Below, piece by piece: positions 2,300-63,500 of a DNA stretch of 64,000 nucleotides; position 1 is the stretch's first letter, and every line of letters starts with the position of its first letter. The notes under the pieces are model-generated. The model searched no databases. It had not been told where the DNA came from and saw only the letters and a list, made by a program, of their open reading frames with translations. The stretch spans positions 55,955 through 119,954 of the forward strand of contig JADBJK010000015.1 in assembly GCA_014874485.1 (NCBI GenBank), read 5' to 3'. The stretch is from Chloroflexota bacterium (GTDB taxonomy: Bacteria > Chloroflexota > Anaerolineae > DTLA01). A program made the translations under genes and the position numbers.

Positions 2300-2301
2300 G
2301 C

Positions 2302-16890: not shown

Positions 16891-17358
16891 TTGAACGACA
16901 AACTCCGTGAAGTCCTGCAAGCGCCGGTAACCGGCAAAGGAGACCTCATCCCGCTGCTCCAAAAGGCTCAGGAGGCCGAGGGATACGTCTCCGAGGAGGC
17001 CATCTACGCCATCGCCGAGAAACTGCGCATTCCCGCCAGCGAGGTGTTCGGCGTGTTGTCCTTCTACGCGCAGTTTCGGCTGCGTCCCATGGGCAAGCAC
17101 AACGTCAAGATATGCCGGGGCACGGCCTGCCACGTGCGCGGCTCGCCCCTTATCGTTACCGCTGTGGAGAGCGAACTGAAACTGGGCGGCGGCGAGGATA
17201 CGACTTCGGATGGCTTGTTCACGGTGGAGAAAATCGCCTGCTTCGGGGCGTGCAGCCTGGCGCCGGTGATGGTGGTGAACGGGCGCACCTACGGGAACCT
17301 GAGTCCGGACAAGGCGCGCCGCCTGATTCGCAAGATCGCGGAGGAAGAACATGTATAG
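16891..17358 (+). CDS. fdsG: NAD-dependent formate dehydrogenase gamma subunit (NuoE-like [2Fe-2S])
   Basis: The 155-aa product has the CRGTACHVRG...CFGACSLAP motif. It is a paralogue of hoxE. Confidence 0.75.
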   Translation: MNDKLREVLQAPVTGKGDLIPLLQKAQEAEGYVSEEAIYAIAEKLRIPASEVFGVLSFYAQFRLRPMGKHNVKICRGTACHVRGSPLIVTAVESELKLGGGEDTTSDGLFTVEKIACFGACSLAPVMVVNGRTYGNLSPDKARRLIRKIAEEEHV

Positions 17359-19210: not shown

Positions 19211-19241
19211 CCACGGTTCTCGGATGGAAGGAGACGCAGAC

Positions 19242-27329: not shown

Positions 27330-28373
27330 ATGGATCTGTTCGGCAAGGATTTGATCACAACCCAGGAATGGACCAAGGAAGAACTGGATGCCGTGCTGGA
27401 CCTGGCGGCGAAGATGAAGCGCGACCGCTTCAACCCGCGCTTCACCAGCCTGCTGCAGAACAAGACGTTCTTCATGTTCTTCTACAACCCGTCGGTGCGG
27501 ACGCGCCAGAGTTTTGAGTGCGCCGCCACCGAACTCGGCGGCCATGCCCAGTTCCTGGAGCCGAAGGCCATGCGCCTGAAGACGGCAACCAGCGCGGGCG
27601 AGACGGTGGAGGACGCCGCCAAAGTTATGGACCGCTACGCCGCGGGCCTGGGCATCCGCATCCTGGAGGACAAGATCGGCGCGTATGGCGAGGGCGACGA
27701 CCTCATCCGCGAGTACGCCTACTGGGCCCGAATGCCCGTCTTCTCCATGGCGCACGACAAGTATCACCCGTTCCAGGGCCTGGCCGACATCATGGGCTGG
27801 GCCGAATGGTACGGCAAAGGCCCAGGCCAGACGCTGGACATGAGCGTGCTCAAGGGCAAGAAACTGCTCGTTACCTGGGGGCACGGGGCACTGGCCCGCT
27901 CGTGGTGCTCGGTGCAGGAGGCGCTGCTCATCGGCTCCCGCTACGGGATGCACGTAACCCTGGCGCACCCCGAAGGGTATCCGCTGGATCCCCAGGTCAT
28001 TGAGTGGACGCGGGCCAACTGCCAGGCCAACGGCACCACGTTTGAGGAGACCACCGACGTGCGCGAGGGGTACGTGGGCGCGCATGTGGTGTACTCGCGC
28101 CACTGGATGAGCCCCGATGCGTACAAGGATGGCGAGTTCCTCAAGCAGCAGGAGATTGAGCGGGCGCTGAAACTCACCGAGTGGATTTGCGACGCCGAGA
28201 AGATGCGCCTGACCGACAACGCCATCTTCACCCATCCCATGCCCATTGACCGCGGCCACGAGGTTACCGACGAGGTCGCCAGCGGCCCGCGCTCGTGCAT
28301 CTACGACGTGGCCGAGAACCGCCTGCACGTGCAGAAGGCCGTCATGGCCCTGACCATGTCGGGCCTTCTGTAG
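27330..28373 (+). CDS. Carbamoyltransferase, OTC/ATC superfamily paralogue 2 (substrate unknown)
   Basis: It has SVRTRQSFE and HPFQGLADI, and HPMPIDRG in place of HCLP. It shares about 40% similarity with paralogue 1. Confidence 0.7.
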   Translation: MDLFGKDLITTQEWTKEELDAVLDLAAKMKRDRFNPRFTSLLQNKTFFMFFYNPSVRTRQSFECAATELGGHAQFLEPKAMRLKTATSAGETVEDAAKVMDRYAAGLGIRILEDKIGAYGEGDDLIREYAYWARMPVFSMAHDKYHPFQGLADIMGWAEWYGKGPGQTLDMSVLKGKKLLVTWGHGALARSWCSVQEALLIGSRYGMHVTLAHPEGYPLDPQVIEWTRANCQANGTTFEETTDVREGYVGAHVVYSRHWMSPDAYKDGEFLKQQEIERALKLTEWICDAEKMRLTDNAIFTHPMPIDRGHEVTDEVASGPRSCIYDVAENRLHVQKAVMALTMSGLL

Positions 28374-29352: not shown

Positions 29353-29452
29353 CGACTTCGCGCTACCGCATTCTGAAACGTCGGGGACAATGGGGTCTCC
29401 GGCGTTTCTCTTTTGCAGGGAGTGGGAAGGCGCACAGGGATTTTTGGTGGTA

Positions 29453-30082
29453 TGTCATTGCGAGGGGCGAAGCCCCGAAGCAATCCCTGGGACGTGAGAT
29501 TGCTTCGCTTCGCTCGCAATGACGGAGAAGGCACTTGCGACGCACCTCCGAGGTGCGTCGCAAGTGGGCCGACTGGATTGCTTCGCTTCGCTCGCAATGA
29601 CAGCAAAGGGGTTGTCATTGCGAGGGGCGCAGCCCCGAAGCAATCCCCGGGGCGCGAGATGGCTTCGCTTCGCTCGCAATGACGGAGAATGCACGTGCGA
29701 CGCACCTCCGAGGTGCGTCGCACGTGGGCCGACTGGATTGCTTCGCTTCGCTCGCAATGACAGCAAAGGGGTTGTCATTGCGAGGGGCGCAGCCCCGAAG
29801 CAATCCCCGGGGCGCGAGATGGCTTCGCTTCGCTCGCAATGACGGAGAATGCACGTGCGACGCACCTCCGAGGTGCGTCGCACGTGGGCCGACTGGATTG
29901 CTTCGCTTCGCTCGCAATGACAGCAAAGGGGTTGTCATTGCGAGGGGCGCAGCCCCGAAGCAATCCCCGGGGTGCGAGATTGCTTCGCTTCGCTCGCAAT
30001 GACGGAGAAGACACTTGCGACGCACCTCCGAGGTGCGTCGCAAGTGGGCCGACTGGATTGCTTCGCTTCGCTCGCAATGACA
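29453..30082. repeat. Tandem array of about four 160-bp composite units built from MITE-family modules (each unit has TGTCATTGCGAG termini and a 13-bp-stem hairpin CTTGCGACGCACCTC-CGAG-GTGCGTCGCAAG)
   Basis: The unit period is exactly 160 bp (29610/29770/29930). Units are near-identical and there are no unique spacers. Confidence 0.8.
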
Positions 30083-30102
30083 GGTGCCGCGCTGCATCCC
30101 CA

Positions 30103-31266: not shown

Positions 31267-32220
31267 ATGCGGTCATCCACCCACAAACGATTGTTGGTTG
31301 CGGCGCTGTGTTGCACGGCGATGATTTCGGCGTGCAGCGCCGCAACCCGCCAGGCCCCTACCCCCACGCCGTCGCCCACGCCCACGGCCATGCCTACGGC
31401 GACGGCCACGCAGCCCATGCCAACGGCCACGCCTGCCCCCACGTGCACGCCGTGCCCGTCGCCCGTGCCCACCGACACGCCCGTGCCGACGCCCACCCCG
31501 ACGCCGTGGCCCACGCCCGACGGCATCGCCCGCACGGCCTACGTGCCCATCCTGATGTATCACTACATCTCCGTGCCGCCGAAGAACGCCGATGCAATCC
31601 GCCGCGACCTGTCGGTGTCGCCCGCCGCCTTTGAGGAACAACTGCGCTACCTCAAAGACCATGGCTACCAGACCATCAGCCTCTACGACCTGAACCGCCA
31701 CTTGCAGCGGGGCGATCCCCTGCCCGAGAAGCCCGTCATCCTCACGTTTGACGATGGCTACCGCGACAACTTTGACTTTGCGTTCCCGCTGTTGGTGAAA
31801 TACGGGTTCACGGGGACGTTCTTCCTGGTAACCGAACCCATTGACCGCGGCGACGAGGCGTACCTGACCTGGCCGCAGGTAACCGTCATGAGCCGCATGG
31901 GCATGGACATGGAGCCGCATACCTATACCCACCCCGACCTCACCAACAAGCCCGTGGACTACATCGTGTGGCAAGTCATCGGCTCCAAAGAGGCCATTGA
32001 GGAGCGCACGGGCAAGACCTGCCGCTTCTTCGCCTACCCGTCGGGGCAGTACGACCAGAGGGTTGTGGATGTGCTGAAGTCCGCGTATTTCTGGGGCGCG
32101 GTGGTATCCCAGGCGGGCGCGACCCACACGTCCGACGGGATGTTCGCCCTCAAGCGGGTGCGGGTTCGCGGCTCGGATACCCTGGAGCAGTTCGCCCAGA
32201 AACTGACCTGGGACTGGTAG
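31267..32220 (+). CDS. Polysaccharide deacetylase (CE4/NodB) lipoprotein with PT-rich linker
   Basis: It has a signal peptide with a lipobox (MISAC), a PTPTPSPTPT linker, and the NodB motifs TFDDGY and HTYTHPDL. Confidence 0.75.
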   Translation: MRSSTHKRLLVAALCCTAMISACSAATRQAPTPTPSPTPTAMPTATATQPMPTATPAPTCTPCPSPVPTDTPVPTPTPTPWPTPDGIARTAYVPILMYHYISVPPKNADAIRRDLSVSPAAFEEQLRYLKDHGYQTISLYDLNRHLQRGDPLPEKPVILTFDDGYRDNFDFAFPLLVKYGFTGTFFLVTEPIDRGDEAYLTWPQVTVMSRMGMDMEPHTYTHPDLTNKPVDYIVWQVIGSKEAIEERTGKTCRFFAYPSGQYDQRVVDVLKSAYFWGAVVSQAGATHTSDGMFALKRVRVRGSDTLEQFAQKLTWDW

Positions 32221-38714: not shown

Positions 38715-39824
38715 ATGCGGAACAAAGTTGTGTCCTTGCTACTCGCTGTAACTCTCTTGCTCATTGCAGTATCGCCTGCTTTCGCCGAAGGCCCCAGCGG
38801 AGACTTTGAGGTCATTCGGGCCGCGGCCGAGAAGTATCTCACCACGGTCAAGTCACCCGTCATCACCGCCGACGCCCTGTACACGCTGCTGAACGACGGG
38901 GATGCTTCCAACGACCCATTCATCCTCAGCGTGCGTAAGCCGGAGGACTACGCGCTGGGCCACATTCCGGGCGCGGTGAACATCTTCTACAAAAACATCG
39001 CCAAGCCCGAGAACCTGGCCAAACTGCCCAAGGACAAGCAGATCGTGGTCTACTGCTACACCGGCCACACCGGCCAGATCGCGACCACCATCCTCAACCT
39101 CCTGGGCTACAACGCCGTCAACCTCAAGTTCGGGATCATGGGCTGGACGAAGAACGACGCGGTCCTGAACCAGAAGCGGTTCGGCCCCGACACCGAACAG
39201 CGCGACTACCCGCTGGAGACCACGGTCAACGAAGCGACGGCCACCTATCCCTACCCGACCGTCTCCACGGGCGCGACCGGCGACTTTGAGATCATCCGCA
39301 CCGCCGCCGATAACTGGCTGAACAGCGCCAAGGCCCCCATCGTTACCGCCGATTCCGTGTTTGAGAACCTGAACGACGGCGACGCGTCCAACAATCCGGT
39401 CATCGTCTCCGTGCGCACGGCCGAACACTACGCGCTGGGCCACATCCCGGGCGCCATCAACATCTTCTACAAGGACATCGCCAAGCCCGAGAACCTGGCC
39501 AAACTGCCCCCGGACAAGCGCATTTTGACCTACTGCTACACCGGCCACACCGGAATGGTGGCGGCGACGATCCTGGGCCTGCTGGGTTACGACGCCGGCA
39601 ACATCAAGTACGGCATGATGGGCTGGACCAAGGACGACAAGGTGCTCGCCCAGGCGCGGTACGATGTCAAGACGGCTCCCGACTATCCGGTTGAGGGCAC
39701 TGCCGCTCCCGCCAAACTGCCCGTTACCGGTGCCGAGACCAACCTGACGTGGGTCGTGCTGGTCGCCGGCATCGCCGCTCTGCTCACGGGCAGCGCCCTG
39801 TACGCAAAGCGCACGACGCGCTAG
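38715..39824 (+). CDS. Secreted tandem-rhodanese (two sulfurtransferase domains) with C-terminal LPXTG sortase anchor
   Basis: It has a signal peptide, two near-identical rhodanese domains each with an active-site loop CYTGHTG, and a C-terminus LPVTG + hydrophobic helix + KRTTR. The RBS is AAGGAGG. Confidence 0.75.
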   Translation: MRNKVVSLLLAVTLLLIAVSPAFAEGPSGDFEVIRAAAEKYLTTVKSPVITADALYTLLNDGDASNDPFILSVRKPEDYALGHIPGAVNIFYKNIAKPENLAKLPKDKQIVVYCYTGHTGQIATTILNLLGYNAVNLKFGIMGWTKNDAVLNQKRFGPDTEQRDYPLETTVNEATATYPYPTVSTGATGDFEIIRTAADNWLNSAKAPIVTADSVFENLNDGDASNNPVIVSVRTAEHYALGHIPGAINIFYKDIAKPENLAKLPPDKRILTYCYTGHTGMVAATILGLLGYDAGNIKYGMMGWTKDDKVLAQARYDVKTAPDYPVEGTAAPAKLPVTGAETNLTWVVLVAGIAALLTGSALYAKRTTR

Positions 39825-39972
39825 TTCTGGCTGCAAAGACGCCGGTTGGCCTCCGGGCGTCTTGACGCGGTAAGGCTTGCTTCGGGGGATTGCCGCGAGG
39901 CGATTCCCCGAAGCACCCAAAAACGACGGATTTCGCAGTACCTACCAGTTGACCACAGAGGAAAGTACCCGT

Positions 39973-40126
39973 TGTCATTGTGAGCGAAGCGAAGCAATCT
40001 CACGCTCCGTCTGTCATGCTGAGCGCAGCGGAGCATCTCGGTTAACGAGATTCTTCGGCGCTTCGTGCCTCAGTAGGGACAATTCATGAATTGTCCCTAC
40101 GGGCGCTGCGCGCCCTCGCAATGACA
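39973..40126. mobile_element. MITE-like element, copy 2 (154 bp, with an internal perfect palindrome GGGACAATTCATGAATTGTCCC)
   Basis: It has the same TIRs and module order as copy 1. Confidence 0.7.
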
Positions 40127-40177
40127 ACCAGTAAGAAGCCCTGTGGTGCAGTACCTAATCCAGAAGAGAGGTGGCAC

Positions 40178-41578
40178 ATGAAACCCAAAACCCTGATCTG
40201 GGTGGTGGGTTTGGTCGGGATCACGGTGCTGATCCTGGCGGCCTGTGGAGCCGCGGCGACGCCTACGCCGACCACAGCGCCCACGAAAGTACCGCCGATC
40301 AACACGCCTGTACCACCGCCCACCAACACCCCGGCACCGACGAACACTCCGGTGCCCCCGACACCCACGCCCATCCCGAGCGCGGACAACTGCGTGGCGT
40401 GTCATACCAACGCGGAAACCCTGCAGAAACTCGCCGAGACCAAGAAGACCGGCTCCGCCGAAACCGAAGGCGAGGGTTGAGCGGGCGAGTTGCCTCCGTT
40501 GGAGGCATGGGAAAAGGTCTTCATCGGCAACGACACCTTCCTCAAGGACGTCCACAACACGCCCAACTGCATCGGCTGCCACGGCGGCCAGCCGGATACG
40601 AATGACAAGGCCGTTGCCCACCAGGGCGTGGTGCGCGACCCGTCAGCCGATCCCCAGGGTGTCTGCGCCAACTGCCACGGCGACATCGCCAAGACCTACG
40701 CCACTTCGCTGCACTACACCATCAGGGGGTACTACACCATCCTCGGCGAGCGCGGGTTTGACTTCAACGACCCGGCCAAGGCCGAAATCTTCAACCGCCA
40801 CTGCACCAGTTGCCATGCGACCTGCGGCCAGTGCCACATCTCGCGGCCCACGTCGGCCGACGGCGGCCTCGTGAAGGATCACCAGGTCAAGAGCATCGTC
40901 TCGCTCAGCGACACGTGCCTGGGCTGCCACGGCGGGCGCGTCGGCCCCGAGTTCATGGGCAAGAACGCGGGCGTGCCCGGCGACGTCCACTGGACCAAGG
41001 GCGTCAACTGCTTCAAGTGCCACAATATGACGCAGTTCCACGGCGACGGCACGCAGTACGCCCACCGGTACGACGGCAAGCCTGTGCCTTCGTGCCTGGA
41101 TTGCCACCCGGACGCCGCGCCCGGCAAGGGCCAGGTCATGCAGCACAACATCCACGGCGACAAACTGGACTGCCGCGTGTGCCACTCGGCCGGGGCCTAC
41201 AAGTCCTGCTGGAACTGCCACGTCGGCCTAGACAAGGAAGGTCTGCCGTATCGCAAACTTGACCCGTCGGTGATGACCTTCAAGATCGGCAAGAACCCGA
41301 ACCCGACGCCCGACCGACCGTGGGAGTACGTCCTGGTGCGGCACATCCCGGTGCCCGCGGACATCTTCGGGTACTACGGCGACAACATGCTGCCCAACTG
41401 GGCCGCCGTGCCCACCTGGAAGTACGCCACCGTGCACAACATCCAGAAGATCACGCCGCAGAACCAGGACTGCAAGAACTGCCACGGCCATCCGGAACTG
41501 TTCCTGACGGAGAAGGACGTGGATCCGGCGGAACTGGAAGCAAACCGCGCCGTGATCGTTACGGAGATTCCGAAGTAG
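40178..41578 (+). CDS. Multiheme c-type cytochrome lipoprotein (~11 CxxCH motifs) interrupted by a single in-frame TGA at 40478..40480: either selenocysteine/readthrough or a disrupted gene
   Basis: Track ORFs 40091..40480 and 40490..41578 share a frame and are separated only by the TGA. The upstream part supplies a signal peptide with a lipobox (LAAC), a PT linker and the first heme site (CVACH). The downstream part has ten CxxCH motifs but no signal peptide of its own. A hairpin TGCCTCC-GTT-GGAGGCA begins 11 nt after the TGA. Confidence 0.55.
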
Positions 41579-42066
41579 TCGGTTTCACCGCAGAGAACGC
41601 AGAGACCGCAGAGGGAGACGAGAAATCGGGCTCCTTTGCGGTCTCTGTCATGAAATTGCTGCCCGCACTGCCTGGCTTGTCATTGCGAGGGCGCGTAGCA
41701 GTCGGTTTCACCACAGAGAACGCAGAGACCGCAGAGGGAGACGAGAAATCGGGCTCCTTTGCGGTCTCTGTCATGAGCTTGCTGCCACACTGCCCGGCTT
41801 GTCATTGCGAGGGCGCGAAGCAGTCGGTTTCACCACAGAGAACGCAGAGACCGCAGAGGGAGACGAGAAATCGGGCTCCTCTGCGGTCTCTGTCATGAGC
41901 TTGCTGCCACACTGCCCGGCTTGTCATTGCGAGGGCGCGAAGCAGTCGGTTTCACCACAGAGAACGCAGAGACCGCAGCGGGAGACGAGAAATCGGACCC
42001 CCTTTGCGGTCTCTGTCATGAAATTGCTGCCCTCATGCGACGCACCTCGCAGGTGCATCGCACGTT
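41579..42066. repeat. Tandem array of four ~120-bp units of a second repeat family (GTTTCACCRCAGAGAACGCAGAGACCGCAGAG... ending in TGTCATTGCGAGGGCGCG)
   Basis: The period is about 120-121 bp (41579/41700/41820/41940). Each unit contains an 11-bp-stem hairpin CAGAGACCGCA...TGCGGTCTCTG. Confidence 0.75.
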
Positions 42067-44504: not shown

Positions 44505-44868
44505 TTACGTTTCACCGCAGAGGGCGCGGAGACCGCAGAGATCAAGGTTTCTAGAACTTGACCGCAGAGTAAATTGTCTGGTGTCATTGCGGGCCAAGCA
44601 TCTCGCGGCCCACGTGCGAGGCACCTCCGAGGTGCGTCCCACGTGCCCCTGCTGGGATTGCTTCGGGCGCTGCGCGCCCTCGCAATGACACCTCATCTGT
44701 CATGCTGAGCGAAGCGAAGCATCTCGGTTGACGAGATTCTTCGGCGCTTTGCGCCTCAGAATGACGGTCTAGTGAGCGAAGCAGTCTCCTGCTTGCGGGC
44801 GATTGTTTCACCGCACCTGTGCAAGCATCCCCTAGCACCCTCTGCGTTCTCTGCGACTCTGCGGTGAG
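44505..44868. repeat. Composite repeat block: a rearranged MITE copy (44582..44766) flanked by second-family modules
   Basis: It contains GTGTCATTGCG..., the hairpin module GCGAGGCACCTCCGAGGTGCGTC, the GTCATGCTGAGCGAAGCGAAGCATCTCGGTTGACGAGATTCTTCGGCGC module, and GTTTCACCGCAGAG modules. Confidence 0.65.
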
Positions 44869-45563: not shown

Positions 45564-45641
<78 letters not shown>

Positions 45642-45831: not shown

Positions 45832-45904
45832 GGGGCTGTAGCTCAGTGGGAGAGCACTTGTCTGGCAGACAAGGGGTCAGGGGTTCAAGTCCCCTCAGCT
45901 CCAC
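45832..45904 (+). tRNA. tRNA-Ala (anticodon GGC)
   Basis: It has a cloverleaf with G3:U70, the anticodon loop CUGGCAG and a T-loop TTCAAGT. Confidence 0.8.
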
Positions 45905-46024
45905 CTTCACCCCACCATCAACCCTGGCCAAGCAGGGTGGTACCGCGGAACTCCTCCGTCCCTGGACGGGGGAGTTTTGTTTATCTGGCGAGGGTTCGGG
46001 GGTTTACACAGATTCGGCTCTGTG

Positions 46025-46413
46025 TGTCATTGCGAGCGAAGCGAAGCAATCTTACGCTCCGTTTGTCATGCTGAGCGAAGCGAAGCATCTCGGTTGACGA
46101 GATTCTTCGGCGCTCCGCGCCTCAGAATGACGGGGCGGTGGCTGTCATGCTGAGCGAAGCGAAGCATCTCGGTTGACGAGATTCTTCGGCGCTCCGCGCC
46201 TCAGAATGACGGGGCGGTGGCTGTCATGCTGAGCGAAGCGAAGCATCTCGGTTGACGAGATTCTTCGGCGCTCCGCGCCTCAGAATGACGGGGCGGTGGC
46301 TGTCATGCTGAGCGAAGCGAAGCATCTCGGTTGACGAGATTCTTCGGCGCTCCGCGCCTCAGAATGACAGCCTACCGAGATTGCTTCGGGCGCTCCGCGC
46401 CCTCGCAATGACA
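46025..46413. mobile_element. MITE-like element, copy 3, expanded by a 4x tandem amplification of its internal 79-bp module (46064..46379)
   Basis: The TIRs TGTCATTGCGAG...CTCGCAATGACA are intact. The internal unit GTCATGCTGAGCGAAGCGAAGCATCTCGGTTGACGAGATTCTTCGGCGCTCCGCGCCTCAGAATGACGGGGCGGTGGCT is repeated four times. Confidence 0.75.
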
Positions 46414-46466
46414 ACGAGCGACAGCGTTCGGAACCGAATCCAGATTCGGCTGACGGGAGAGAAGCG

Positions 46467-49794: not shown

Positions 49795-52335
49795 ATGATT
49801 CAACTGGACGACCTGCTCCAGGCTACAGGCGGGCGGGTTCACGGCCCGGTGTTCGCGCGCGAGTTCGCCGACTTCTGCTACGACTCCCGCCTGCTCCATC
49901 CGGGCGAACTGTTCCTCGCCGTCAAGACCGAGACGGGCGACGGGCACGACTACGTGCTGGATGCCTGCCGTAAGGGGGCCGCGGGCGTCGTAGCCGAGCG
50001 CGAGTTTGACCTTGCCCCGTTCGGCGCGACCCTGGTCGTCGTGGAGAATACGCAGCAGGCGCTGACCGACTGGGCGCGGTACATCCTGCGCAAGTTCGGC
50101 ACCGAGGTCGTCGGCATCACCGGCAGTTCGGGCAAGACGACGACAAAGGAGGCCATCGCCCACATCCTCGGCGCGCGGTTCCGCGTCTTCCGCAACTACG
50201 CCAACTACAACGGGCGCTACGGCCTGCCCATCGCGCTGGGCCGCCTGGAACCGGCCCACGAGGTGGCCGTGCTGGAGATGGCTTGCGACGGGTTTGACGA
50301 AATCCGCCTGCTGGCCGACCTCACGCGGCCTCGCGTCGGCGTCGTTACCACGGTCAACCCGACCCACATTGAGTACCTCGGCTCGCTGGAGCAGATCGCG
50401 ATTGAGAAGGGCCGCCTGGTAGAGGCGCTGCCCGCCGATGGCTACGCCGTGCTCAACTGGGACGACGAGCGGGTGCGCGCCATGGCCCGGCGTACGCAGG
50501 CGCGCGTGCTGTTCTACGGCCTCGGCGCGGATGCCGACGTGCGGGCCGAGGACGTCGCCTCGTCGCCGGAGGGCATCGCCTTCACGCTGGTGGCCCAGGG
50601 GCAGCGCGTGGCAGTTCGCTGCCCGCTGCTGGGCAGGCACCACGTGTACACGGCCCTGGCCGCCGCGTCGGTGGGGCTTGTGTACGGCATCGGCCTGGGG
50701 GAAATCGCCGAGCGCCTGGCCGAGTTCCGCCCCCAGCCCGGCCGCCTCAACCCGCTGCCGGGCAAGGGCGGCGCGCTCATCCTGGACGACACGTACAACT
50801 CCAGCCCCGCCGCGGTGATGGCCGCCCTGGACACCCTGGCGGACTTCCCGCGGGGCGGGCGCATCGCCGTCCTGGGCGACATGCTCCAACTGGGCGACTA
50901 CGCCGAAGAGTATCACCGCGAGGTCGGGCGCAAGGCGGCGAGCGTCGTGGATTTTCTCATCACGCAGGGCGAGTGGGCGCGGCTCATCGCGATGGAAGCC
51001 GAGGCGTCGGGGCTGGCGGCAGACGCGGTCGCGGTAACGTACACGGCGGGCGATGCGATTGCGGCGGCGGAGAAGGCCCTGCGCCCCGGCAGCGTCCTCC
51101 TGGTGAAGGGGGCGCAGGAACTCCGCATGGAGCAGGTGGTGGCGGCGCTGCTGGCCCAGCCCGAGACGGCGAGCCGCGTCCTGGTGCGCCAGAACTCGGC
51201 GTGGCAGCGCGTGCGGCTGGTGAGGCCGGGCCGCCCCACGTGGGTGGAGATTGACCTGGACGCCATCGCCTACAACGTCCGCCGCCTGGTGGAAATCGCC
51301 GGGCCGGGCGTGGACGTGATGGCGGTGCTGAAGGCCGACGCCTACGGCCACGGCGCGGTGAAGGTGGCCCGCACGGCGCTCAACAACGGCGCGGCGTGCA
51401 TCGGCGTCGCGTGCCTGGGCGAGGCGGTGGAGTTGCGGCGGGCGGGCATCACGGCCCCCATCCTCATCCTGGGGTTCACCCCGCCCTGGCAGGCGCGCGA
51501 GGCCGTGCTCCACGACGTGCGCGTAACCGTCTTCTCCTGGGATGTGGCCCAGGCGCTCAACCGCGCCGCCGCAGATTTGCGAGACCGCGCCCGCGTGCAC
51601 GTGAAGGTGGACACGGGCATGGGCCGCCTGGGCCTGATGCCCGACGAGGTGGTGCCGTTCGTGCGCGCGCTGCACGATTTGGCCAACGTGGAGGTGGAGG
51701 GCATCTTCACCCACTTCGCCACCGCCGACTCTGCCGACAAGTCCCACGCGCGGGCGCAACTGGCCACATTCCAGGCCGTGCTGGACGACCTGCGCGCGGC
51801 CGGGTTCTCGTTCCGCTACGTCCACGCGGCCAACAGCGCCGCCATGCTCAGCCTGCCCGAGTCGCGGTTCAACCTGGTGCGTCCGGGCATCGCGCTGTAT
51901 GGGCTGAATCCGTCGGCGGAGGTGCCGTGCCCGCCCGACTTTCGCCGCGCCCTGTCGTTCAAGTGCCAGGTGGCCCAGGTGAAGACCCTGCCGCCTGGCT
52001 CCTGCGTGAGTTACGGCTGCACGTACCGCACGCCCGACTGGCGGAAGATCGCGGTGATTCCGGTGGGGTACGCCGACGGGTTCCGCCGCGCGCCCGCGCA
52101 CTGGGGTGAGGTGCTGGTCAAGGGGCAGCGAGCGCCCATCGTGGGCCGCGTGTGCATGGACCAGACGATGATAGACGTTACGGACATCCCCGGCGTGCGA
52201 CAGGGCGACGAAGTGGTGCTCATCGGGCGGCAGGGGCAGGAGGAAATCACCGCCGACGAGGTGGCCGCGCGCCTGGGGACCATCAACTACGAGGTGGTGT
52301 CCGAAATCCTGGCGCGCGTGCCCCGCGTGAGTTGA
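49795..52335 (+). CDS. murF: Bifunctional UDP-MurNAc-tripeptide:D-Ala-D-Ala ligase (MurF) / alanine racemase (Alr) fusion
   Basis: The N-terminal ~450 aa are MurF (GITGSSGKTTTKE). The C-terminal ~380 aa are Alr (AVLKADAYGHGA PLP-lysine motif, ...VCMDQ...). Confidence 0.85.
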   Translation: MIQLDDLLQATGGRVHGPVFAREFADFCYDSRLLHPGELFLAVKTETGDGHDYVLDACRKGAAGVVAEREFDLAPFGATLVVVENTQQALTDWARYILRKFGTEVVGITGSSGKTTTKEAIAHILGARFRVFRNYANYNGRYGLPIALGRLEPAHEVAVLEMACDGFDEIRLLADLTRPRVGVVTTVNPTHIEYLGSLEQIAIEKGRLVEALPADGYAVLNWDDERVRAMARRTQARVLFYGLGADADVRAEDVASSPEGIAFTLVAQGQRVAVRCPLLGRHHVYTALAAASVGLVYGIGLGEIAERLAEFRPQPGRLNPLPGKGGALILDDTYNSSPAAVMAALDTLADFPRGGRIAVLGDMLQLGDYAEEYHREVGRKAASVVDFLITQGEWARLIAMEAEASGLAADAVAVTYTAGDAIAAAEKALRPGSVLLVKGAQELRMEQVVAALLAQPETASRVLVRQNSAWQRVRLVRPGRPTWVEIDLDAIAYNVRRLVEIAGPGVDVMAVLKADAYGHGAVKVARTALNNGAACIGVACLGEAVELRRAGITAPILILGFTPPWQAREAVLHDVRVTVFSWDVAQALNRAAADLRDRARVHVKVDTGMGRLGLMPDEVVPFVRALHDLANVEVEGIFTHFATADSADKSHARAQLATFQAVLDDLRAAGFSFRYVHAANSAAMLSLPESRFNLVRPGIALYGLNPSAEVPCPPDFRRALSFKCQVAQVKTLPPGSCVSYGCTYRTPDWRKIAVIPVGYADGFRRAPAHWGEVLVKGQRAPIVGRVCMDQTMIDVTDIPGVRQGDEVVLIGRQGQEEITADEVAARLGTINYEVVSEILARVPRVS

Positions 52336-52346: not shown

Positions 52347-53477
52347 ATGCGCGTGCTGATGATCTCCAAGGCGTGCCTGGTGGGCATCTACCAGCGGAAG
52401 TTGGAGGAACTGGCCCGCCTGCCCGACGTAACGCTGAAGGTGCTGGTACCGCCGTCGTGGAACGACCGGGGCGGGCGCGTGCCGCTGGAGCGCGTGCACA
52501 CCGAGGGGTACGACCTGGAGGCCATCCCCATCGCCTTCAACGGGAACTACCACCTGCATTTCTACCCCGACCTGGGCCGCTACGTGCGCGCCTTCCGCCC
52601 GGACATCGTGCACATAGACGAGGAGCCGTACAACCTGGCCACGTGGCAGGCGATGCGACTGGCGCGGGCGGTCGGCGCGAAGGCGCTGTTCTTCACGTGG
52701 CAGAATCTCCTGCGGGGGTATCCGCCCCCGTTTCGGTGGATGGAGACGTACAATTACCGCCATGCCGCCTATGCCATTGCGGGGAATCGGGAAGCGGTGG
52801 CCGTCCTGCGCGCCAAGGGGTTCGCGGGGCCGGTGGCCGTCATCCCGCAGTTCGGCGTGGACACCGACCGCTTCGCGCCCGCCGACGGCATGCCCGACCC
52901 CGCCGCGCCGTTCACCGTGGGGTTCATCGGGCGGATGGTGCCGGAGAAGGGCGTGGGCCTGCTGCTGGACGCGATGGCCGGTCTGGACGGGGACTGGCGG
53001 CTGATGTACCTGGGCGACGGCCCGGCCCGCGCCGAGTTGGAGGCCCGCGTCCGGGCGATGGGGCTGGCCTCGCGGGTGGCCTTCCGGTCGCGCGTCCCCT
53101 CGGTGGAGATGCCCGCCTACCTGCGGCGGCTGCATGTGCTGGCGCTTCCCTCGCTCACGCGGCCCAACTGGAAGGAGCAGTTCGGGCGTGTGCTCATTGA
53201 GGCGATGGCGTGCGGCGTGCCCGTCGTCGGCTCCAGCAGCGGCGAGATTCCCAACGTCATCGGGGACGCGGGGCTGGTGTTCCCGGAGGGGGACGCGGAG
53301 GCGCTGCGGGCGGCGCTGGCGCGGCTGCGCGATGACCGCGCCCTGTGGCAGCGCCTGGCGGCGGCGGGGCGGGCGCGCGTCCTGGCCGAGTTCACCCACG
53401 CGCAGGTGGCGCAGAAGACGTACCGCGTGTATCAGTCTGTAGGGGCGATTCATGAATCGCCCCTACTGGCAAGGTGA
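52347..53477 (+). CDS. GT4-family glycosyltransferase
   Basis: It has a GT-B fold with the EX7E region (EQFGRVLIEAMACGVPVV). Confidence 0.75.
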   Translation: MRVLMISKACLVGIYQRKLEELARLPDVTLKVLVPPSWNDRGGRVPLERVHTEGYDLEAIPIAFNGNYHLHFYPDLGRYVRAFRPDIVHIDEEPYNLATWQAMRLARAVGAKALFFTWQNLLRGYPPPFRWMETYNYRHAAYAIAGNREAVAVLRAKGFAGPVAVIPQFGVDTDRFAPADGMPDPAAPFTVGFIGRMVPEKGVGLLLDAMAGLDGDWRLMYLGDGPARAELEARVRAMGLASRVAFRSRVPSVEMPAYLRRLHVLALPSLTRPNWKEQFGRVLIEAMACGVPVVGSSSGEIPNVIGDAGLVFPEGDAEALRAALARLRDDRALWQRLAAAGRARVLAEFTHAQVAQKTYRVYQSVGAIHESPLLAR

Positions 53478-54475
53478 TAGTCCTCGCCCCGCGCGACCCC
53501 CGGCCCCCGCCCGCGGCTGAAGCCGTCGGGCTGAAAGGGCCAAGCCCTGCGGGCTATCCCAGCCCCACCGGGGCTTCGCCCGTTCAGCGCGGGGGTTTAG
53601 CCCCGCGCGGGCATGCGCCCCTGCCCTCGCCCGCGGCTGAAGCCGTCGGGCTGAAAGGGCCAAGCCCTGCGGGCTATCCCAGCCCCACCGGGGCTTTGCC
53701 CATTCAGCGCGGGGGTTTAGCCCCGCGCGGTCCTGCCCCGCCCTCTCCCGCGCGCCCCTGCGCCCGCCCGCGGCTGAAGCCGTCGGGCTGAAAGGGCCAA
53801 GCCCTGCGGGCTATCCCAGCCCCACCGGGGCTTCGCCCGTTCAGCGCGGGGGTTTAGCCCCGCGCGGGCATGCGCCCCTGCCCTCGCCCGCGGCTGAAGC
53901 CGTCGGGCTGAAAGGGCCAAGCCCTGCGGGCTGCCCGTAGGGCCCAGCACGCTGCGCCCAGCCCGAACGGGGTTTTGCCCATTCAGCGCGGGGGTTTAGC
54001 CCCGCGCGGCCGTGCGCCCCTGCCCTCGCCCGCGGCTGAAGCCGTCGGGCTGAAAGGGCCAAGCCCTGCGGGCTATCCCAGCCCCACCGGGGCTTTGCCC
54101 ATTCAGCGCGGGGGTTTAGCCCCGCGCGGTCCTGCCCCGCCCTCTCCCGCGCGCCCCTGCCCGCGGCTGAAGCCGTCGGGCTGAAAGGGCCAAGCCCTGC
54201 GGGCTGCCCGTAGGGCCCAGCACGCTGCGCCCAGCCCGAACGGGGTTTTGCCCATTCAGCGCGGGGGTTTAGCCCCGCGCGGCCGTGCGCCCCTGCCCTC
54301 GCCCGCGGCTGAAGCCGTCGGGCTGAAAGGGCCAAGCCCTGCGGGCTATCCCAGCCCCACCGGGGCTTTGCCCGTTCAGCGCGGGGGTTCAGCCCCGCGC
54401 GGCCCTGCCCCTTTCGCGCCTTTCGTGCCCTTTCGCGCATTTCGCGATCCAAACGCCCTGCCCGCGCGTTTGTAC
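53478..54475. repeat. About 1 kb of GC-rich tandem palindromic repeats (third family; ~7 units of 120-145 bp sharing the core GGCTGAAGCCGTCGGGCTGAAAGGGCCAAGCCCTGCGGGCT and the hairpin GCGCGGGGGTTTAGCCCCGCGC)
   Basis: Cores recur at about 53516, 53637, 53772, 53890, 54031, 54166 and 54307, with two alternating variant sub-modules between them. Confidence 0.75.
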
Positions 54476-54498
54476 TCCAGGCGCGGGGCGGCTATAAT
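54469..54498 (+). promoter_or_regulatory. Promoter TTGTAC-N18-TATAAT upstream of the second GT4 gene
   Basis: A perfect -10 lies immediately after the repeat array. Confidence 0.35.
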
Positions 54499-54548
54499 GC
54501 GGGCATGCATCACATCCCAAGCGGGCATCCGGAGGTGGGGCAGCGCCT

Positions 54549-55679
54549 GTGCGAATCGGCCTGAACGCTCAACTCTTGTCCCTGTCCGACAGTTACCGCG
54601 GGGCAGGCATCGCGCACTACATCCACCAAACGCTCATGCACCTGCCGCGTGCGGGTGCGCACACGTACATCGCATTCGTGGCAGACAAGGCATTCCGTGC
54701 GGACGGCATGGAGGTCGTCCCTTCGCGCCTGCCCACATCCCGCCCGCCCGTGCGCATCCTCTGGGAGCAGACCTTCCTGCCGGTGGAACTGGCCCGCCGC
54801 GGCATAGACTTGCTCCACGCCATGGCGTTCGTTATGCCGGTGTTCTCCGCGGTGCCCTCGGTGGTTACCGTGTACGACGTGTCGTTCGCCCTGTTCCCGG
54901 AGAGTTTCCGCCCGTTCAACCGCTGGTACCTGGCCACCATGACGCGGCGCTCGGTGCGCAAGGCCCGCGCCGTGCTCGCCATCTCCCAGAACACGGCCAA
55001 CGACCTGTGCCGCCTGTGGGGCATCCCGCGCGACAAGATTCACCTGGCGTACTGCGGCGTGGACGACATCTTCCGTCCCGTGCCAGGGGGCGAGGTGCAG
55101 GCGTTCCGCGAGGCCAGGGGGCTGCCCGCGCAGTACATCCTGTTCGTGGGGACGCTGGAGCCGCGCAAGAACGTGGTGCGCCTTGTGGAGGCGTTCGCAC
55201 TCCTGAAGAAGCAGGGCCTGCCGCACAAGCTCGTCCTGGCGGGCGGCAGGGGCTGGATGTACGAACCCATCTTCGCGGCGGTGGAGCGGCTGGGGCTGGA
55301 GTCCGAGGTCCTCTTCCCCGGGTTCGTGCCGCGGCAGGAACTGCCTTTGTGGTATAATGGGGCGGCGGTCTTCGTGTATCCGTCGCTGTACGAGGGGTTT
55401 GGCCTGGGGCCGCTGGAGGCGATGGCATGCGGGACGCCCGTCGTGGTGTCGGACCGCGCCTCGCTGCCCGAAGTGGTGGGAGACGCGGGGCTGACCGTGC
55501 CGCCAGACGACGTATCGGCCCTCGCCGAGGCGATGGCGGCCATCCTGCGCGAGCCGATGCAGGCAGCCCGACTGCGCGAACGGGGCCTTCGCCGCGCCCG
55601 CGAGTTCACATGGGAGCGCACGGCCCAGGCCACCGTGCAGGCATACGAAAGCGTCCTGTCGGAGAGACGGCATGTCTAA
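54549..55679 (+). CDS. GT4-family glycosyltransferase
   Basis: It has a GTG start and the motif EGFGLGPLEAMACGTPVV. Confidence 0.75.
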   Translation: MRIGLNAQLLSLSDSYRGAGIAHYIHQTLMHLPRAGAHTYIAFVADKAFRADGMEVVPSRLPTSRPPVRILWEQTFLPVELARRGIDLLHAMAFVMPVFSAVPSVVTVYDVSFALFPESFRPFNRWYLATMTRRSVRKARAVLAISQNTANDLCRLWGIPRDKIHLAYCGVDDIFRPVPGGEVQAFREARGLPAQYILFVGTLEPRKNVVRLVEAFALLKKQGLPHKLVLAGGRGWMYEPIFAAVERLGLESEVLFPGFVPRQELPLWYNGAAVFVYPSLYEGFGLGPLEAMACGTPVVVSDRASLPEVVGDAGLTVPPDDVSALAEAMAAILREPMQAARLRERGLRRAREFTWERTAQATVQAYESVLSERRHV

Positions 55680-57099
55680 GCGGTATCGGCGTGTTGTGGC
55701 CTTGCTCACGGCCCTAGGCGACATCGTGCTCATCAACGTGGCTTTCGCGCTGGCCTACTTCGTCCGCTATCAGTTGGAGTGGCCGCGCCCGGTCATTGAC
55801 GAGTACTACGTCCCGTACCAAACGTTTATCCCTATCGCCGCGCTGTTCACGGGGGTGCTGCTGCTCACCTTCCTCCTGGAGAAGGTGTACGAGGTGCGTC
55901 GCGGTCGTCCCTGGCTGGACGAGGTGTACGCCATTCTCAACGGCACGACCAACGGGGTCATCCTGCTCATCGTGTTCTTCTTCGTCTCGGGCTCGCCGCT
56001 GTACTCCCGCCTGATCTTCCTCTACGCGGCGGTGGCGGTGGTGGTGGTGCTGGGGCTGGGCCGCGCCGTGCGCAACTGGATTCTGAACGCATTGCGCAAG
56101 AAGGGCATCGGCGTGGATCGGGTGCTGGTGGTGGGCGCGGGCGAGATGGGCCGCATGCTCATGCGCAACATCGTCGCCCAGCCCGAACTGGGCTACCGCA
56201 TCGTGGGCTACGTGGACGACGACCCGAAGAAGGCCAACGGGGCCGTGGGCCGATTCGCGGGCCTGGGCACGGTGGACGACTTGCCGCGGATTCTCGCCGC
56301 GGGGAACGTGGACGAGGTCATCGTAACGCTGCCGTGGATGTACCACCGCAAGATTCTGCGCATCGTCAACGAGTGTGCGCGGTCGGACATCCGCGCCCGC
56401 ATCGTGCCCGACCTGTTCCAGATGTCGGTGCGGCGGCTGGATTTGGACAACCTGAACGGCCTGCCGCTCTTGTCGGTGCAGGAGCCGCGCATCAGCGCTT
56501 CGGGGCAAATCGCCAAGCGCGTGCTGGATGTCGTCGGCGCGGCCGTTGTGTTGATCATCACGTCCCCGTTCATGGCGCTGGCCGCGCTGGCCATACGGCT
56601 GGATTCTCCTGGGCCCATCCTGTTCCGCCAGGAGCGGGTGGGGCGCGGCGAGTCGCGGTTCACCCTGTACAAGTTCCGCACCATGTACAAGGACGCCGAG
56701 GAGCAACTGGAGACCCTCAAGGCGCGCAACGAGGCGTCGGGGCCGCTGTTCAAGATGAAGAACGACCCGCGCATCACGCGGGTGGGGCGCATCCTGCGGC
56801 GGACGAGCATAGACGAGTTGCCGCAGTTGTACAACGTGCTGAAGGGGGACATGAGCCTGGTGGGGCCGCGCCCGCCCCTGCCGCGGGAGGTAGAGCAGTA
56901 CCAGGACTGGCACCGCAGGCGGCTGGCCGTGGCCCCAGGTATCACGGGCCTCTGGCAGGTGAGCGGCCGCAGCGACCTGACCTTTGACGAGATGGTGCTC
57001 CTGGACCTGTACTACATTGAGAACTGGTCGCTGTTCTTGGATTTCAAGATTCTGTTGCGGACGATTCCGCAGGTCATCTTTGCGAGGGGGGCGTATTAG
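55672..57099 (+). CDS. Polyprenyl-phosphate sugar phosphotransferase (WbaP/bacterial sugar transferase family) with CoA-binding-like domain
   Basis: It has N-terminal TM helices and a C-terminal catalytic domain (DELPQLYNVLKGDMSLVGPRP). Confidence 0.8.
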   Translation: MSKRYRRVVALLTALGDIVLINVAFALAYFVRYQLEWPRPVIDEYYVPYQTFIPIAALFTGVLLLTFLLEKVYEVRRGRPWLDEVYAILNGTTNGVILLIVFFFVSGSPLYSRLIFLYAAVAVVVVLGLGRAVRNWILNALRKKGIGVDRVLVVGAGEMGRMLMRNIVAQPELGYRIVGYVDDDPKKANGAVGRFAGLGTVDDLPRILAAGNVDEVIVTLPWMYHRKILRIVNECARSDIRARIVPDLFQMSVRRLDLDNLNGLPLLSVQEPRISASGQIAKRVLDVVGAAVVLIITSPFMALAALAIRLDSPGPILFRQERVGRGESRFTLYKFRTMYKDAEEQLETLKARNEASGPLFKMKNDPRITRVGRILRRTSIDELPQLYNVLKGDMSLVGPRPPLPREVEQYQDWHRRRLAVAPGITGLWQVSGRSDLTFDEMVLLDLYYIENWSLFLDFKILLRTIPQVIFARGAY

Positions 57100-57121
57100 C
57101 ACTTGACTACCGAGAAGATTG

Positions 57122-57273
57122 TGTCATTGCGAGCGAAGCGAAGCAATCTCGCGCTCCATGTGTCATGATGAGCGGAGCGAAGCATCTCGTTGACGAGATT
57201 CTTCGGCGCTTCGCGCCTCAGAATGACAGGCTGCCGGGATTGTTTTCGGGCGCTGGGCATTCTCGCGATGACA
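57122..57273. mobile_element. MITE-like element, copy 4 (3' TIR degenerate: CTCGCGATGACA)
   Basis: It has the same module order as copies 1-3. Confidence 0.65.
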
Positions 57274-57319
57274 GCGCCAACCGCGGTGAAATCATGTATC
57301 GTACAGTGCGAGGGAGGAC

Positions 57320-62827: not shown

Positions 62828-63354
62828 GCCTCTGGCAGGCCGCGGCGGCGCTGGATCGCCGCATCAGCCGACGGTTGCGGATTCCCGAAGGGCGGCGCGG
62901 GCTTCGCTTGGCGGCGCTCGTCGTGGCCCACCTGGGCGACAGCCCGCTGTGGGCGGCTATCCTCGTCGGCGCGTATGCGTGGGGTGGGGCTTCGCTGCGC
63001 GCCCTGGCCGTACGGACGGCCGCCGCCATACTCACGGTCGGCATCCTGGGCGGCGTTGCCAAGCGCATCGTGCGCCGCCCCCGCCCGGATGGGTACGCGC
63101 CCGGACTGTACTCGCGCACCATGGACCGCTACTCGTTCCCATCGGGCCACGCGGCGCGAATGGCAGCGGTGGCGGCTGTGGTGGGCGCGGCGTATCCGGA
63201 CTTCGCGGTGGCGGCTGCTGCGTGCGCGGTCGTGGTGGCAGTGGCGCGCGTGGCGCTGGGTGTGCACTACGCGGGCGACGCGCTGGGCGGCCTGCTGCTG
63301 GGCACGCTCGTTGCGGCGGCGTGGGTGGCCGGGGTGCACGGGCTGCCGGGTTGA
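62824..63354 (+). CDS. PAP2-family (type 2 phosphatidic-acid-phosphatase-like) membrane phosphatase
   Basis: It has the motifs KRIVRRPRP (KxxxxxxRP), PSGH, and SRVALGVHYAGD (SRxxxxxHxxxD). Confidence 0.75.
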   Translation: MSLWQAAAALDRRISRRLRIPEGRRGLRLAALVVAHLGDSPLWAAILVGAYAWGGASLRALAVRTAAAILTVGILGGVAKRIVRRPRPDGYAPGLYSRTMDRYSFPSGHAARMAAVAAVVGAAYPDFAVAAAACAVVVAVARVALGVHYAGDALGGLLLGTLVAAAWVAGVHGLPG

Positions 63355-63500
63355 GGGTTTACCGCAGAGCACGCAGAGGGCGCAGAGATTTGTTGGATGC
63401 TGGGGTAACAGTTGCGACGCACTTCCGAAGTGCGTCGCAACTGTGGAACTGCCGGGTTGAGGGTTTACCGCAGAGCACGCAGAGAACGCAGAGAAAGACA
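63355..63500. repeat. Second-family repeat block (two GGTTTACCGCAGAGCACGCAGAG modules flanking a 13-bp-stem hairpin AGTTGCGACGCAC...GTGCGTCGCAACT)
   Basis: There is a direct repeat of the module at 63355 and 63460, with a perfect hairpin between the copies. Confidence 0.65.

Follow-up and report, generated by a model that had tools for sequence, protein, structure and literature searches.

Several families of repeats have been described from the intergenic DNA of bacteria. The repetitive extragenic palindromic (REP) sequences are 35-40 nt long and, in alternating orientation, make up the bacterial interspersed mosaic elements (BIMEs) of Enterobacteria. A related group consists of REPs with a GTAG tag, which also occur in clusters in Thermomicrobium roseum, a member of the Chloroflexi, and for which mobilisation by REP-associated tyrosine transposases (RAYTs) has been proposed (Di Nocera et al., 2013; PMC3733652). 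The REP doublets of Pseudomonas fluorescens (REPINs) and palindromes of ~100-150 bp resembling miniature inverted-repeat transposable elements (MITEs), such as ERIC/IRU, Correia and RUP, are dispersed in tens to hundreds of copies. The mycobacterial interspersed repetitive units (MIRUs), which are variable number tandem repeats (VNTRs), and the BOX elements of Streptococcus pneumoniae are repeats of tens to ~100 bp, subject to slippage or unequal recombination and with no demonstrated essential function. Here we describe an array of seven long palindromic units in the spacer between two glycosyltransferase (GT) genes of a Chloroflexota bacterium (Anaerolineae, DTLA01; assembly GCA_014874485.1). 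The stretch analysed, called the window, comprises 64,000 nucleotides of contig JADBJK010000015.1 (forward strand, 55,955 to 119,954), and positions below are those of the window.

We favour, with a probability of about 0.65, the reading that the array is a selfish or neutral palindromic repeat element, which was present as a single copy in the spacer and was recently amplified locally to seven. Its best-supported placement is close to REP/BIME clusters, to REPIN or MITE-like long palindromes, and to MIRU-type intergenic minisatellites. Neither Rfam nor the searchable literature, including accounts of repeats in Chloroflexi and Anaerolineae, yielded a description of the repeat, and it represents a previously undescribed palindromic repeat family in uncultured Anaerolineae.

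The array and its palindromic unit

Reading of the sequence, Tandem Repeats Finder (TRF), a repeat finder and pattern searches place the array at 53510-54409 (900 bp). It has seven units of 108-142 nt, seven being the count in this one assembly; all are in direct orientation, head to tail, as in a minisatellite or VNTR. TRF called 53498-54409 with a period of 120 nt and 7.0 copies (score 756-1034). The GC content is 75.8%, vs. 66.4% for the window. Every unit consists of an invariant 46-nt core, the hairpin GCGCGGGGGTTTAGCCCCGCGC, which we call hairpin 3, and a C-rich linker. The core, CCCGCGGCTGAAGCCGTCGGGCTGAAAGGGCCAAGCCCTGCGGGCT, has seven exact matches with 0 mismatches, spaced 120-142 nt apart. 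Hairpin 3 (22 nt, with a perfect 8-bp stem and a 6-nt loop) also occurs seven times, six copies being exact and one having a single mismatch. For both, 0.00 occurrences are expected in shuffled sequence, and both are absent from the rest of the 64 kb.

Variation between units is confined to the apex, which is short (S) or long (L), to two single-nucleotide polymorphism (SNP) sites and to the linker, which has three forms. Units 1 and 3 are identical, as are units 4 and 6, and the block of units 4 and 5 is duplicated as units 6 and 7 at 98% identity (family D1, 53880-54138 and 54153-54411), which TRF reports as a higher-order period of 273 nt in 1.9 copies at 98%. The ends of the linkers resemble the sequences flanking the whole array, as would be expected if a unit and a few flanking bases had been duplicated in tandem. 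Exact protein matches revealed the same organism in several public sequencing runs (e.g., SRR31923784, SRR31923787, SRR31923788, SRR31923789, SRR24761108 and SRR31103662), and all of the short-read contigs end ~30-60 nt inside the 5' edge of the array (53535-53537) or begin at its last bases (54408-54427).

A preliminary description of this DNA, made from its sequence, had placed about seven units of a GC-rich palindromic tandem repeat between two glycosyltransferase genes, and both flanking genes are of the GT4 type. The core that it gave as ~40 bp is invariant in 7/7 copies, as claimed, and is longer, at 46 nt; the hairpins that it credited with near-perfect 9-bp stems are found in all units, with perfect stems of 8 bp and a G.G at the ninth position. 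Its alternation of two variants with a higher-order period holds for the last four units, the full order being S S S L S L S.

Folding of the single units gives three GC-rich hairpins in each, namely hairpin 1 (CCCGCGGCTGAAGCCGTCGGG), a long central hairpin and hairpin 3. The folding energies are 2.2-3.6 standard deviations below those of shuffled sequences (z = -2.2 to -3.6), and both strands fold equally well (-75.9 vs. -76.0 and -82.6 vs. -83.4 kcal/mol). RNAalifold, applied to an alignment of the eight distinct copies available, gives another fold, in which the 5' arm is paired along its full length with the 3' arm (37 pairs), and a profile hidden Markov model (HMM) of the unit matches its own reverse strand with E-values down to 2e-13, which indicates that the palindrome extends over the whole unit. 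In unit 1 the arms are identical at 37 of 55 aligned positions. The unit is an imperfect palindrome of ~100-125 nt, each arm of which holds a small hairpin, and it possesses terminal inverted repeats like those of MITEs. In a pair-count test of the three-hairpin model, 96.6% of the cells were paired, vs. 34-56% with slid partners. A covariation test, underpowered with eight distinct sequences, gave a single compensatory pair, a change from G-C to A-U within hairpin 3 of the metagenome contig L010 described below, which is not above shuffles (171/500). The palindromy is real, and by these pair counts it may or may not be under selection for an RNA structure.

The long variant is set apart from the short one by a nested GTAG-type REP. 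Its apex is the short apex plus an insert of ~22-23 nt that starts with GTAG and has a 9-bp stem (GTAGGGCCCAGCACGCTGCGCCC, at 53937-53959 and 54210-54232), and the short units show a gap of 25 columns at this position in the unit alignment. The corresponding insert in a relative (L014) is GTAGGGGCACAGCACGCTGTGCCC, with a perfect 9-bp stem. In the array and its flanks the GTAG tag is limited to this insert and to a palindrome at 53439-53466; hairpins 1 and 3 end in neither GTAG nor CGTC, the tags by which REPs and BIMEs are recognised.

A protein-coding repeat was ruled out. Each forward frame across the array contains 11-14 stops and the reverse frames 3-7, one of the latter with a 203-aa open reading frame (ORF), and most units have a length that is not divisible by 3 (137, 142 or 131 nt). 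An exhaustive HMMER search with the 203-aa ORF among 1.84 billion protein representatives gave only two matches, both of them translated repeats, which agrees with the preliminary view of the ORFs across the array as repeat translations. One chimeric translated-repeat query, of 200 aa, matched a single protein (P0001), and another, of 619 aa, had no match at E <= 10. A CRISPR array, likewise set aside in the preliminary description, is excluded: the variable parts are only two to three recurring variants, no cas genes flank the array, and the sole match to a CRISPR direct-repeat (CRISPR-DR) model scored 18.7 bits, where the gathering score is 35 bits (E = 2.7). No Rfam family matched the array at the gathering threshold, and a permissive Rfam search returned only chance-level generic miRNA-hairpin models (25 bits vs. 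65). Other candidates were also rejected: an integron attC site is contradicted by unit ends that depart from RYYYAAC/GTTRRRY and by the lack of an integrase in the vicinity; a hammerhead-type ribozyme would require CUGANGA, which is lacking, and has no Rfam match; and iterons or centromere-like sites are made implausible by the excessive length of the units and by their setting among chromosomal housekeeping genes.

The spacer in relatives and the unit elsewhere

Syntenic loci were compared at graded divergence, and the percentages given for relatives are identities of the protein encoded by the downstream GT gene, homologs of which are annotated as proteins of Anaerolineales, Anaerolineae or Chloroflexota metagenome-assembled genomes (MAGs). 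In a 90% relative (L020/L021) the spacer of 96 bp consists of the stop codon, 15 nt and the promoter, without any repeat, and in a 93% relative (L019) a spacer of 121 bp holds no unit and only half of another palindromic module. At 87% one locus (L015/L016) has a 210-bp spacer with a hairpin-1-like piece and an unrelated hairpin, and another (L017/L018), in which the upstream gene is different, has another module only. At 84% (L022-L024) the upstream genes are again different, and only a hairpin-3-like piece is found, immediately 5' of the promoter. The 92% relative L014 has exactly one unit, of the long type and with several broken pairs in its 5' arm, in a spacer of 262 bp. In the 98% relative L012 the MAG contig ends within the array, after at least 2.2 units (short, then long) in an arrangement unlike that of the window; here the flanking block CCTTTCGCG is present twice and brackets two units.

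The number of units at the orthologous GT-GT spacer is, accordingly, 0, 0, fragments, 1, at least 2.2 and, in the window, 7, a variation in copy number of the kind that defines a VNTR. The preliminary description had named as its own refutation an invariant unit number in a region that is an assembly artefact of a single unit, and these counts are of the opposite kind, so that the array is no artefact of a single unit. They make up, for a single locus, a natural series of unusual completeness, which runs from the empty spacer through fragments, one copy and few copies to seven. Homology to the relatives ends precisely at the edges of the repeat cluster. Both units of L012 differ from the window core at 3/46 positions, vs. 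0 differences across the 7 x 46 positions of the window, which points to very recent amplification or homogenisation in the lineage of the window. The array is dispensable, since a relative has a 96-bp spacer without a repeat; it is lineage-specific and variable in copy number, and the downstream promoter is independent of it.

Outside this locus the unit is seldom encountered. The exact 23-nt core and a degenerate 26-base core pattern had 0 matches each in 185,579 species-representative genomes, a set that therefore includes neither the repeat nor the source lineage; hairpin 3 and the degenerate core had 0 matches in viral contigs, and blastn gave no match in a plasmid collection. One metagenome scan for the core yielded two unrelated contigs, L010 and L011. 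In L010 (Ga0316624_10032502, ~54% GC) there is one complete unit at 1195-1325, with the same architecture and a core that differs at 2/46 positions. It is the most symmetric copy seen; its apex is different yet contains GTAG, and its hairpin 3 is changed compensatorily. The same ~900-bp spacer, beside a DUF4129 gene, holds a solo inverted hairpin 1 at 1917-1954 and modules of the GTCATTCCGAACG... type. In L011 (JACKQG010108188.1) at least eight tandem units with a period of 93 nt lie at 1210-1889, upstream of a divergently oriented gene without a Pfam match, and the array runs off the end of the contig. These units share only hairpin 1 and the core with those of the window (1/46 differences in the best copy), and their linker is purine-rich. 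Two proteins are also derived from the family: P0122 is translated from two or more units in tandem, which have a period of ~117 nt, and P0001 is a translated mosaic of units and other modules. Direct tandem arrays with the core have thus been seen in independent contexts, at the GT-GT locus, in L011, in P0122 and possibly in P0001. The element is rare, is not tied to glycosyltransferase genes, and occurs as single copies, fragments and arrays.

Flanking genes, promoter and other repeat clusters

The features of the region are collected in Table 1. A small glycan-synthesis cluster is formed by the two GT4 genes and the Bac_transf priming transferase gene. The wider neighbourhood includes a MurF-alanine racemase fusion and leucyl-tRNA synthetase (LeuRS) upstream, and an M20 peptidase and PurA downstream. 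The fusion gene (49795-52335, 846 aa) joins a MurF-like Mur ligase to an alanine racemase (Mur_ligase_M/C and Ala_racemase_N/C) and is kept in all syntenic relatives.

Table 1. Positions of the array, of its neighbouring features and of the repeat clusters in the window
Feature	Position	Strand	Remarks
Upstream GT4 glycosyltransferase	52347..53477	+	376 aa as called in public assemblies; Pfam Glyco_trans_1_4 / Glycos_transf_1 / Glyco_trans_4_4; exact protein on 6 contigs
Perfect 28-bp GTAG...CTAC palindrome GTAGGGGCGATTCATGAATCGCCCCTAC, GTAG-type REP in 3' end of upstream GT gene	53439..53466	.	inverted repeat 14+14 nt, 100% complementary; single copy in window
C-rich 5' flank TCCTCGCCCCGCGCGACCCCCGGCCCCCG	53478..53509	+	3' end resembles 3' ends of inter-unit linkers; TGATAGTCCTCGCCC common to L019
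Unit 1, short tip, linker a	53510..53629	+	120 nt; hairpin 1 53510-53530, core 53510-53555, hairpin 3 53587-53608
Unit 2, short tip, long C-rich linker b	53630..53766	+	137 nt
Unit 3	53767..53886	+	120 nt; same sequence as unit 1
Unit 4, long tip, linker c	53887..54028	+	142 nt
Unit 5, short tip, linker b minus 6 nt	54029..54159	+	131 nt
Unit 6	54160..54301	+	142 nt; same sequence as unit 4; nested REP 54210-54232
Unit 7, short tip, final unit	54302..54409	+	108 nt; hairpin 3 with one substitution (GTTCAG)
Mini-repeat CCTTTCGCG x 4, 3' flank of array	54410..54446	+	TRF period 9, 4.0 copies
Promoter-like block	54469..54498	+	-35 TTGTAC 54470-54475, 17-nt spacer, -10 TATAAT 54493-54498
Downstream GT4 glycosyltransferase	54549..55679	+	Pfam; exact protein on public contigs; overlaps Bac_transf gene
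Bac_transf priming sugar transferase	55672-57099		overlapped by downstream GT gene
Repeat cluster	10288-10490		smaller; dispersed palindromic modules
Repeat cluster	29433-30083		tandem, 160 nt x 3.9 at 97%
Repeat cluster	39949-40146		smaller; dispersed palindromic modules
Repeat cluster	41571-42065		tandem, 122 nt x 3.8 at 94%
Repeat cluster	44579-44771		smaller; dispersed palindromic modules
Repeat cluster	46023-46418		tandem, 79 nt x 3.9, 100% identical, palindromic unit
Repeat cluster	53480-54411		GT-GT spacer array
Repeat cluster	57097-57276		smaller; dispersed palindromic modules
Repeat cluster	63343-63494		smaller; dispersed palindromic modules

The last 12 codons of the upstream GT gene come from an inserted palindrome and its flank, as comparison of the C-terminus with orthologs shows. 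The 28-bp palindrome replaces the ancestral C-terminus, so that the protein ends in ...YRVYQSVGAIHESPLLAR (...YQSVGAIHESPLLAR), vs. ...YRVYQETLGGR* in relatives. It is present in the same-species contigs L006-L009 and absent from the orthologs L014, L015, L019 and L020, which are the relatives at most 93% identical whose contigs include the end of this gene.

The downstream GT gene has a GTG start preceded by GGAGG, and its transcription is predicted to begin ~7 nt 3' of TATAAT (~54505). The promoter-like block 5' of it, with the sequence GTTTGT..T...G.CGCGGGGCGGCTATAATGCGGGCA.GC, is invariant in the window, L012, L014, L015 and L017 and recognisable in all the other loci, L019, L020 and L022 among them; its invariance extends over spacers with 0, 1 or 7 units and over loci in which the upstream gene differs. 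A generic consensus scan of 53000-55000 for promoters and terminators called 0 sites of either kind, and the block went uncalled because its -35 hexamer matches at only 3/6 positions. The array ends 60 nt upstream of the -35, and TATAAT starts 84 nt past the last unit; the promoter that the preliminary description had placed immediately after the array does follow, at this distance.

Self-comparison of the window revealed nine intergenic repeat clusters in the 64 kb. The eight other than the GT-GT array consist of different palindromic modules, which are dispersed; TGTCATTGCGAG...GAAGCAATC, found also in inverse form, is an example. The tandem arrays at 29433-30083 and 41571-42065 consist of inverted pairs of TGTCATTGCGAGG..GAAGCAATC, other hairpins and CAGAGAACG 9-mers. 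The array at 46023-46418 has two tRNA-Ala genes on one side and leuS on the other. The conspecific strain L006 lacks this 436-bp cluster altogether, and diverged copies of its 79-nt unit are expanded in the Bac_transf-M20 spacer of L012. The two tRNA-Ala genes just 5' of it (45564-45639 and 45832-45905, anticodons CGC and GGC) are 190 nt apart. Alignments with relatives break at all four clusters that their contigs cross (~46.0, 53.5, 57.1 and 63.4 kb), and the cluster at 57.1 kb is expanded in L012, where the spacer measures 427 bp, vs. 220 bp in the window and 54-57 bp in the relatives L015 and L017. Short-read contigs also end at the clusters, as at 57148/57149. The neighbours of the clusters are unrelated housekeeping genes, among them those for LeuRS, an amino-acid kinase, a cytochrome c and a P-type ATPase. 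Intergenic repeat clusters are a genome-wide feature, not peculiar to the polysaccharide locus, and of the exopolysaccharide setting proposed in the preliminary description there remains the position of this one array in a small glycan-synthesis cluster.

Such clusters have practical consequences, as they are break points of short-read metagenome assemblies of these organisms and give rise to spurious ORFs, such as "PIQRGGLAPRG", in protein databases. Two further kinds of repetition were noted in the window. The self-comparison also found diverged duplicated coding segments (1985-6690 vs. 17026-19400, 26165-27208 vs. 27342-28358, and 38790-39183 vs. 39270-39663), which are paralogous genes or domains unrelated to the palindromic repeats, the last pair lying inside a double-rhodanese gene. 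A degenerate CCCACG/CACGCC hexamer tract of ~26 copies at 31363-31531, within an ORF, probably encodes a low-complexity Pro/Thr-rich linker.

Origin of the array and its place among known repeats

The favoured history of the array would begin with one unit in the spacer upstream of the downstream GT promoter, a state that survives in the 92% relative. Unequal recombination or replication slippage between copies would then have duplicated blocks of one and two units up to seven. The final steps were probably very recent, as there are no differences among the cores or within two pairs of units, and a block of two units has a duplicate at 98% identity. Transcription of the array is likely to occur in read-through RNA from the upstream murF/alr-GT genes, because the genes are co-directional, the ancestral spacers short and no terminator was found. 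As an incidental effect, its hairpins may hinder read-through or stabilise the upstream message at its 3' end. The downstream GT operon keeps its own invariant promoter, and relatives manage with 0 or 1 units. The mechanism of amplification, the selfish or neutral status of the element and the transcription of the array are in this sense what we infer from the arrangement, whereas its anatomy and palindromy, the polymorphism in copy number, its dispensability, the conserved promoter, the similar clusters across the genome and the related units elsewhere are seen directly.

Several findings weigh against a selfish or neutral element. No unit was found elsewhere in the 64-kb window or in ~190 kb of DNA from relatives, and nothing in these sequences points to the high-copy dispersal expected of a classical REP or MITE. 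No transposase or RAYT was seen among ~16 window ORFs beside repeat clusters, in a scan that was not exhaustive. Neither a target-site duplication nor a clean pair of empty and filled sites was identified: hairpin 1 is common to L014 and L015, the single copies in L010 and L014 are not bordered by any evident direct repeat, and the empty spacer of L020 has junctions too diverged to define. Lastly, organisms that clearly differ in base composition have versions of the 46-nt core that differ at no more than 1-2 positions. Judged from these sequences, such conservation would exceed what is expected of neutral junk, unless the element has spread horizontally or is recognised by a protein.

The last observation is the basis of another proposal, in which the 46-48-nt core (hairpin 1 plus CTGAAAGGGCCAAGCCCTGCGGGCT) would be a recognition module for a dedicated protein or would have a function at the RNA level. 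The near-identity of the core across organisms of ~54%, ~62% and 66% GC, together with the repeated occurrence of direct arrays, suggests it, and we hold it to be quite doubtful. If the unit were copied head to tail by a specific enzyme, such as a transposase or recombinase of the HUH/Y1 type or another that acts on single-strand DNA, this would be a new mobile-repeat system in uncultured Chloroflexota; alternatively, the arrays could be functional multi-copy RNA or DNA-binding platforms.

Some REP and BIME elements of Escherichia coli have been shown to act as insulators or to protect mRNA 3' ends. The array could similarly be a selected transcriptional insulator or 3'-end element, whose hairpins and linkers stop or attenuate read-through from murF/alr and the first GT gene into the second GT gene and Bac_transf, or protect the 3' end of the upstream mRNA. 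Its position is precisely that between a stop codon and a conserved, independent promoter, its hairpins are very stable, its linkers are C-rich and G-poor on the sense strand (e.g., 23 C vs. 10 G) and thus rut-like, and several relatives have some hairpin module in the same spacer. We nonetheless consider this function unlikely, for there is no intrinsic-terminator-like site (hairpin plus T-run) in 53000-55000, and insulation is evidently unnecessary in the 90% relative, with its 96-bp hairpin-free spacer, and in the 93% relative, which has no hairpin there either. Equal folding of both strands gives no sign of selection on an RNA strand, and one hairpin would be enough, so that seven identical ones are unexplained. 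A related proposal, that the array is a set of tandem small structured RNA genes or one long structured RNA, can appeal to the stable and conserved secondary structure (96.6% of cells paired vs. 34-56%), to the near-identity of the core in distant organisms and to the recurrence of tandem organisation in L011 and P0122. Yet the units contain no promoter-like or terminator-like sites, nothing in Rfam matches above noise, and the single compensatory pair does not exceed shuffles (171/500). Moreover, both strands fold equally, the element is absent from close relatives, and several pairs are broken in the 5' arm of the one L014 copy. RNA genes are on these grounds highly improbable.

The preliminary description had ventured that the array is a phase- or expression-variable spacer. 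As a contingency locus, its unit number would switch or tune the downstream GT operon and with it a surface polysaccharide, and unit number does differ among close relatives of this bacterium, upstream of a cell-envelope glycan operon. Known phase-variation tracts are repeats of 1-7 nt that act through the spacing of -35 and -10 or through the reading frame. The units of 108-142 nt are unlike these tracts, and the array, ending 60 nt 5' of the -35, alters neither promoter spacing nor a reading frame. The promoter and 5' untranslated region (UTR) are invariant whatever the state of the array, one relative is repeat-free, and comparable arrays adjoin the unrelated housekeeping genes named above. 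We regard a contingency function as very improbable, a little less so than RNA genes. Least probable of all is that one or few units have been inflated by repeat mis-assembly. Short-read assemblies do fail to cross the region and two pairs of units are identical, but the units are ordered, distinguishable variants (three linker types, two tip types and SNPs), and the independent assembly of the 98% relative also has at least 2.2 tandem units with both tip types. The assembly of L014 crosses its single unit without trouble, so that the contig breaks seen at the array of the window argue for more than one copy.

With a selfish or neutral repeat as the favoured explanation, the array reveals no new regulatory mechanism and bears on no question of long standing, and nothing in the sequence ties copy number to the control of expression, although a quantitative effect on read-through or expression may exist. 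Its interest lies in the series of spacer states, in the nested insertion of a REP and in the rewriting of a glycosyltransferase C-terminus by another. The significance would rise if tandem amplification were enzyme-driven, or if the core were a recognition site for a protein or an RNA.

Among described systems, the array recalls the tandem NsiR1 small RNA genes upstream of hetF in Nostoc, which likewise are non-coding, structured and arranged in tandem upstream of a gene; every repeat of NsiR1 is equipped with a promoter and a terminator, whereas the array has no such signals and is missing in close relatives. With MIRU-VNTRs of Mycobacterium and with BOX, in which the number of boxB modules is variable, it shares direct repeats between co-directional genes and a copy number that varies between strains. 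MIRUs, in contrast, are not palindromic and often have short ORFs that overlap neighbouring genes, and BOX has defined A and C end-modules, whereas the units of the array are longer, strongly palindromic, mosaic and carry nested REPs.

The unit resembles REPINs and the MITE-like palindromes in having two inverted arms, each with a short hairpin, and in being found singly in the intergenic DNA of an unrelated locus (L010), together with a solo inverted arm. Those families rarely form direct arrays of seven units, and the unit of the array was seen at only one locus per ~64 kb, with no target-site duplication found; we know of no transposase for it. To REP clusters, BIMEs and the GTAG-REP superfamily it is similar in being made of extragenic, GC-rich palindromic modules with short linkers, in mosaic clusters between co-directional genes, whose presence or copy number varies between strains; BIMEs are, in addition, transcribed within operon RNA. 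The differences are that its units are all direct, much longer than a REP at 108-142 nt and each a long palindrome, with terminal hairpins that have no GTAG or CGTC tag. For lack of this tag, and with no copy seen outside the GT-GT spacer in the window and in ~190 kb from relatives, the unit is not filed as a REP proper. True GTAG-tagged palindromes are nevertheless at hand in the window: two are nested in the long units, and the third, inserted within the coding sequence of the upstream GT gene, is in this respect like the palindromic elements of Rickettsia.

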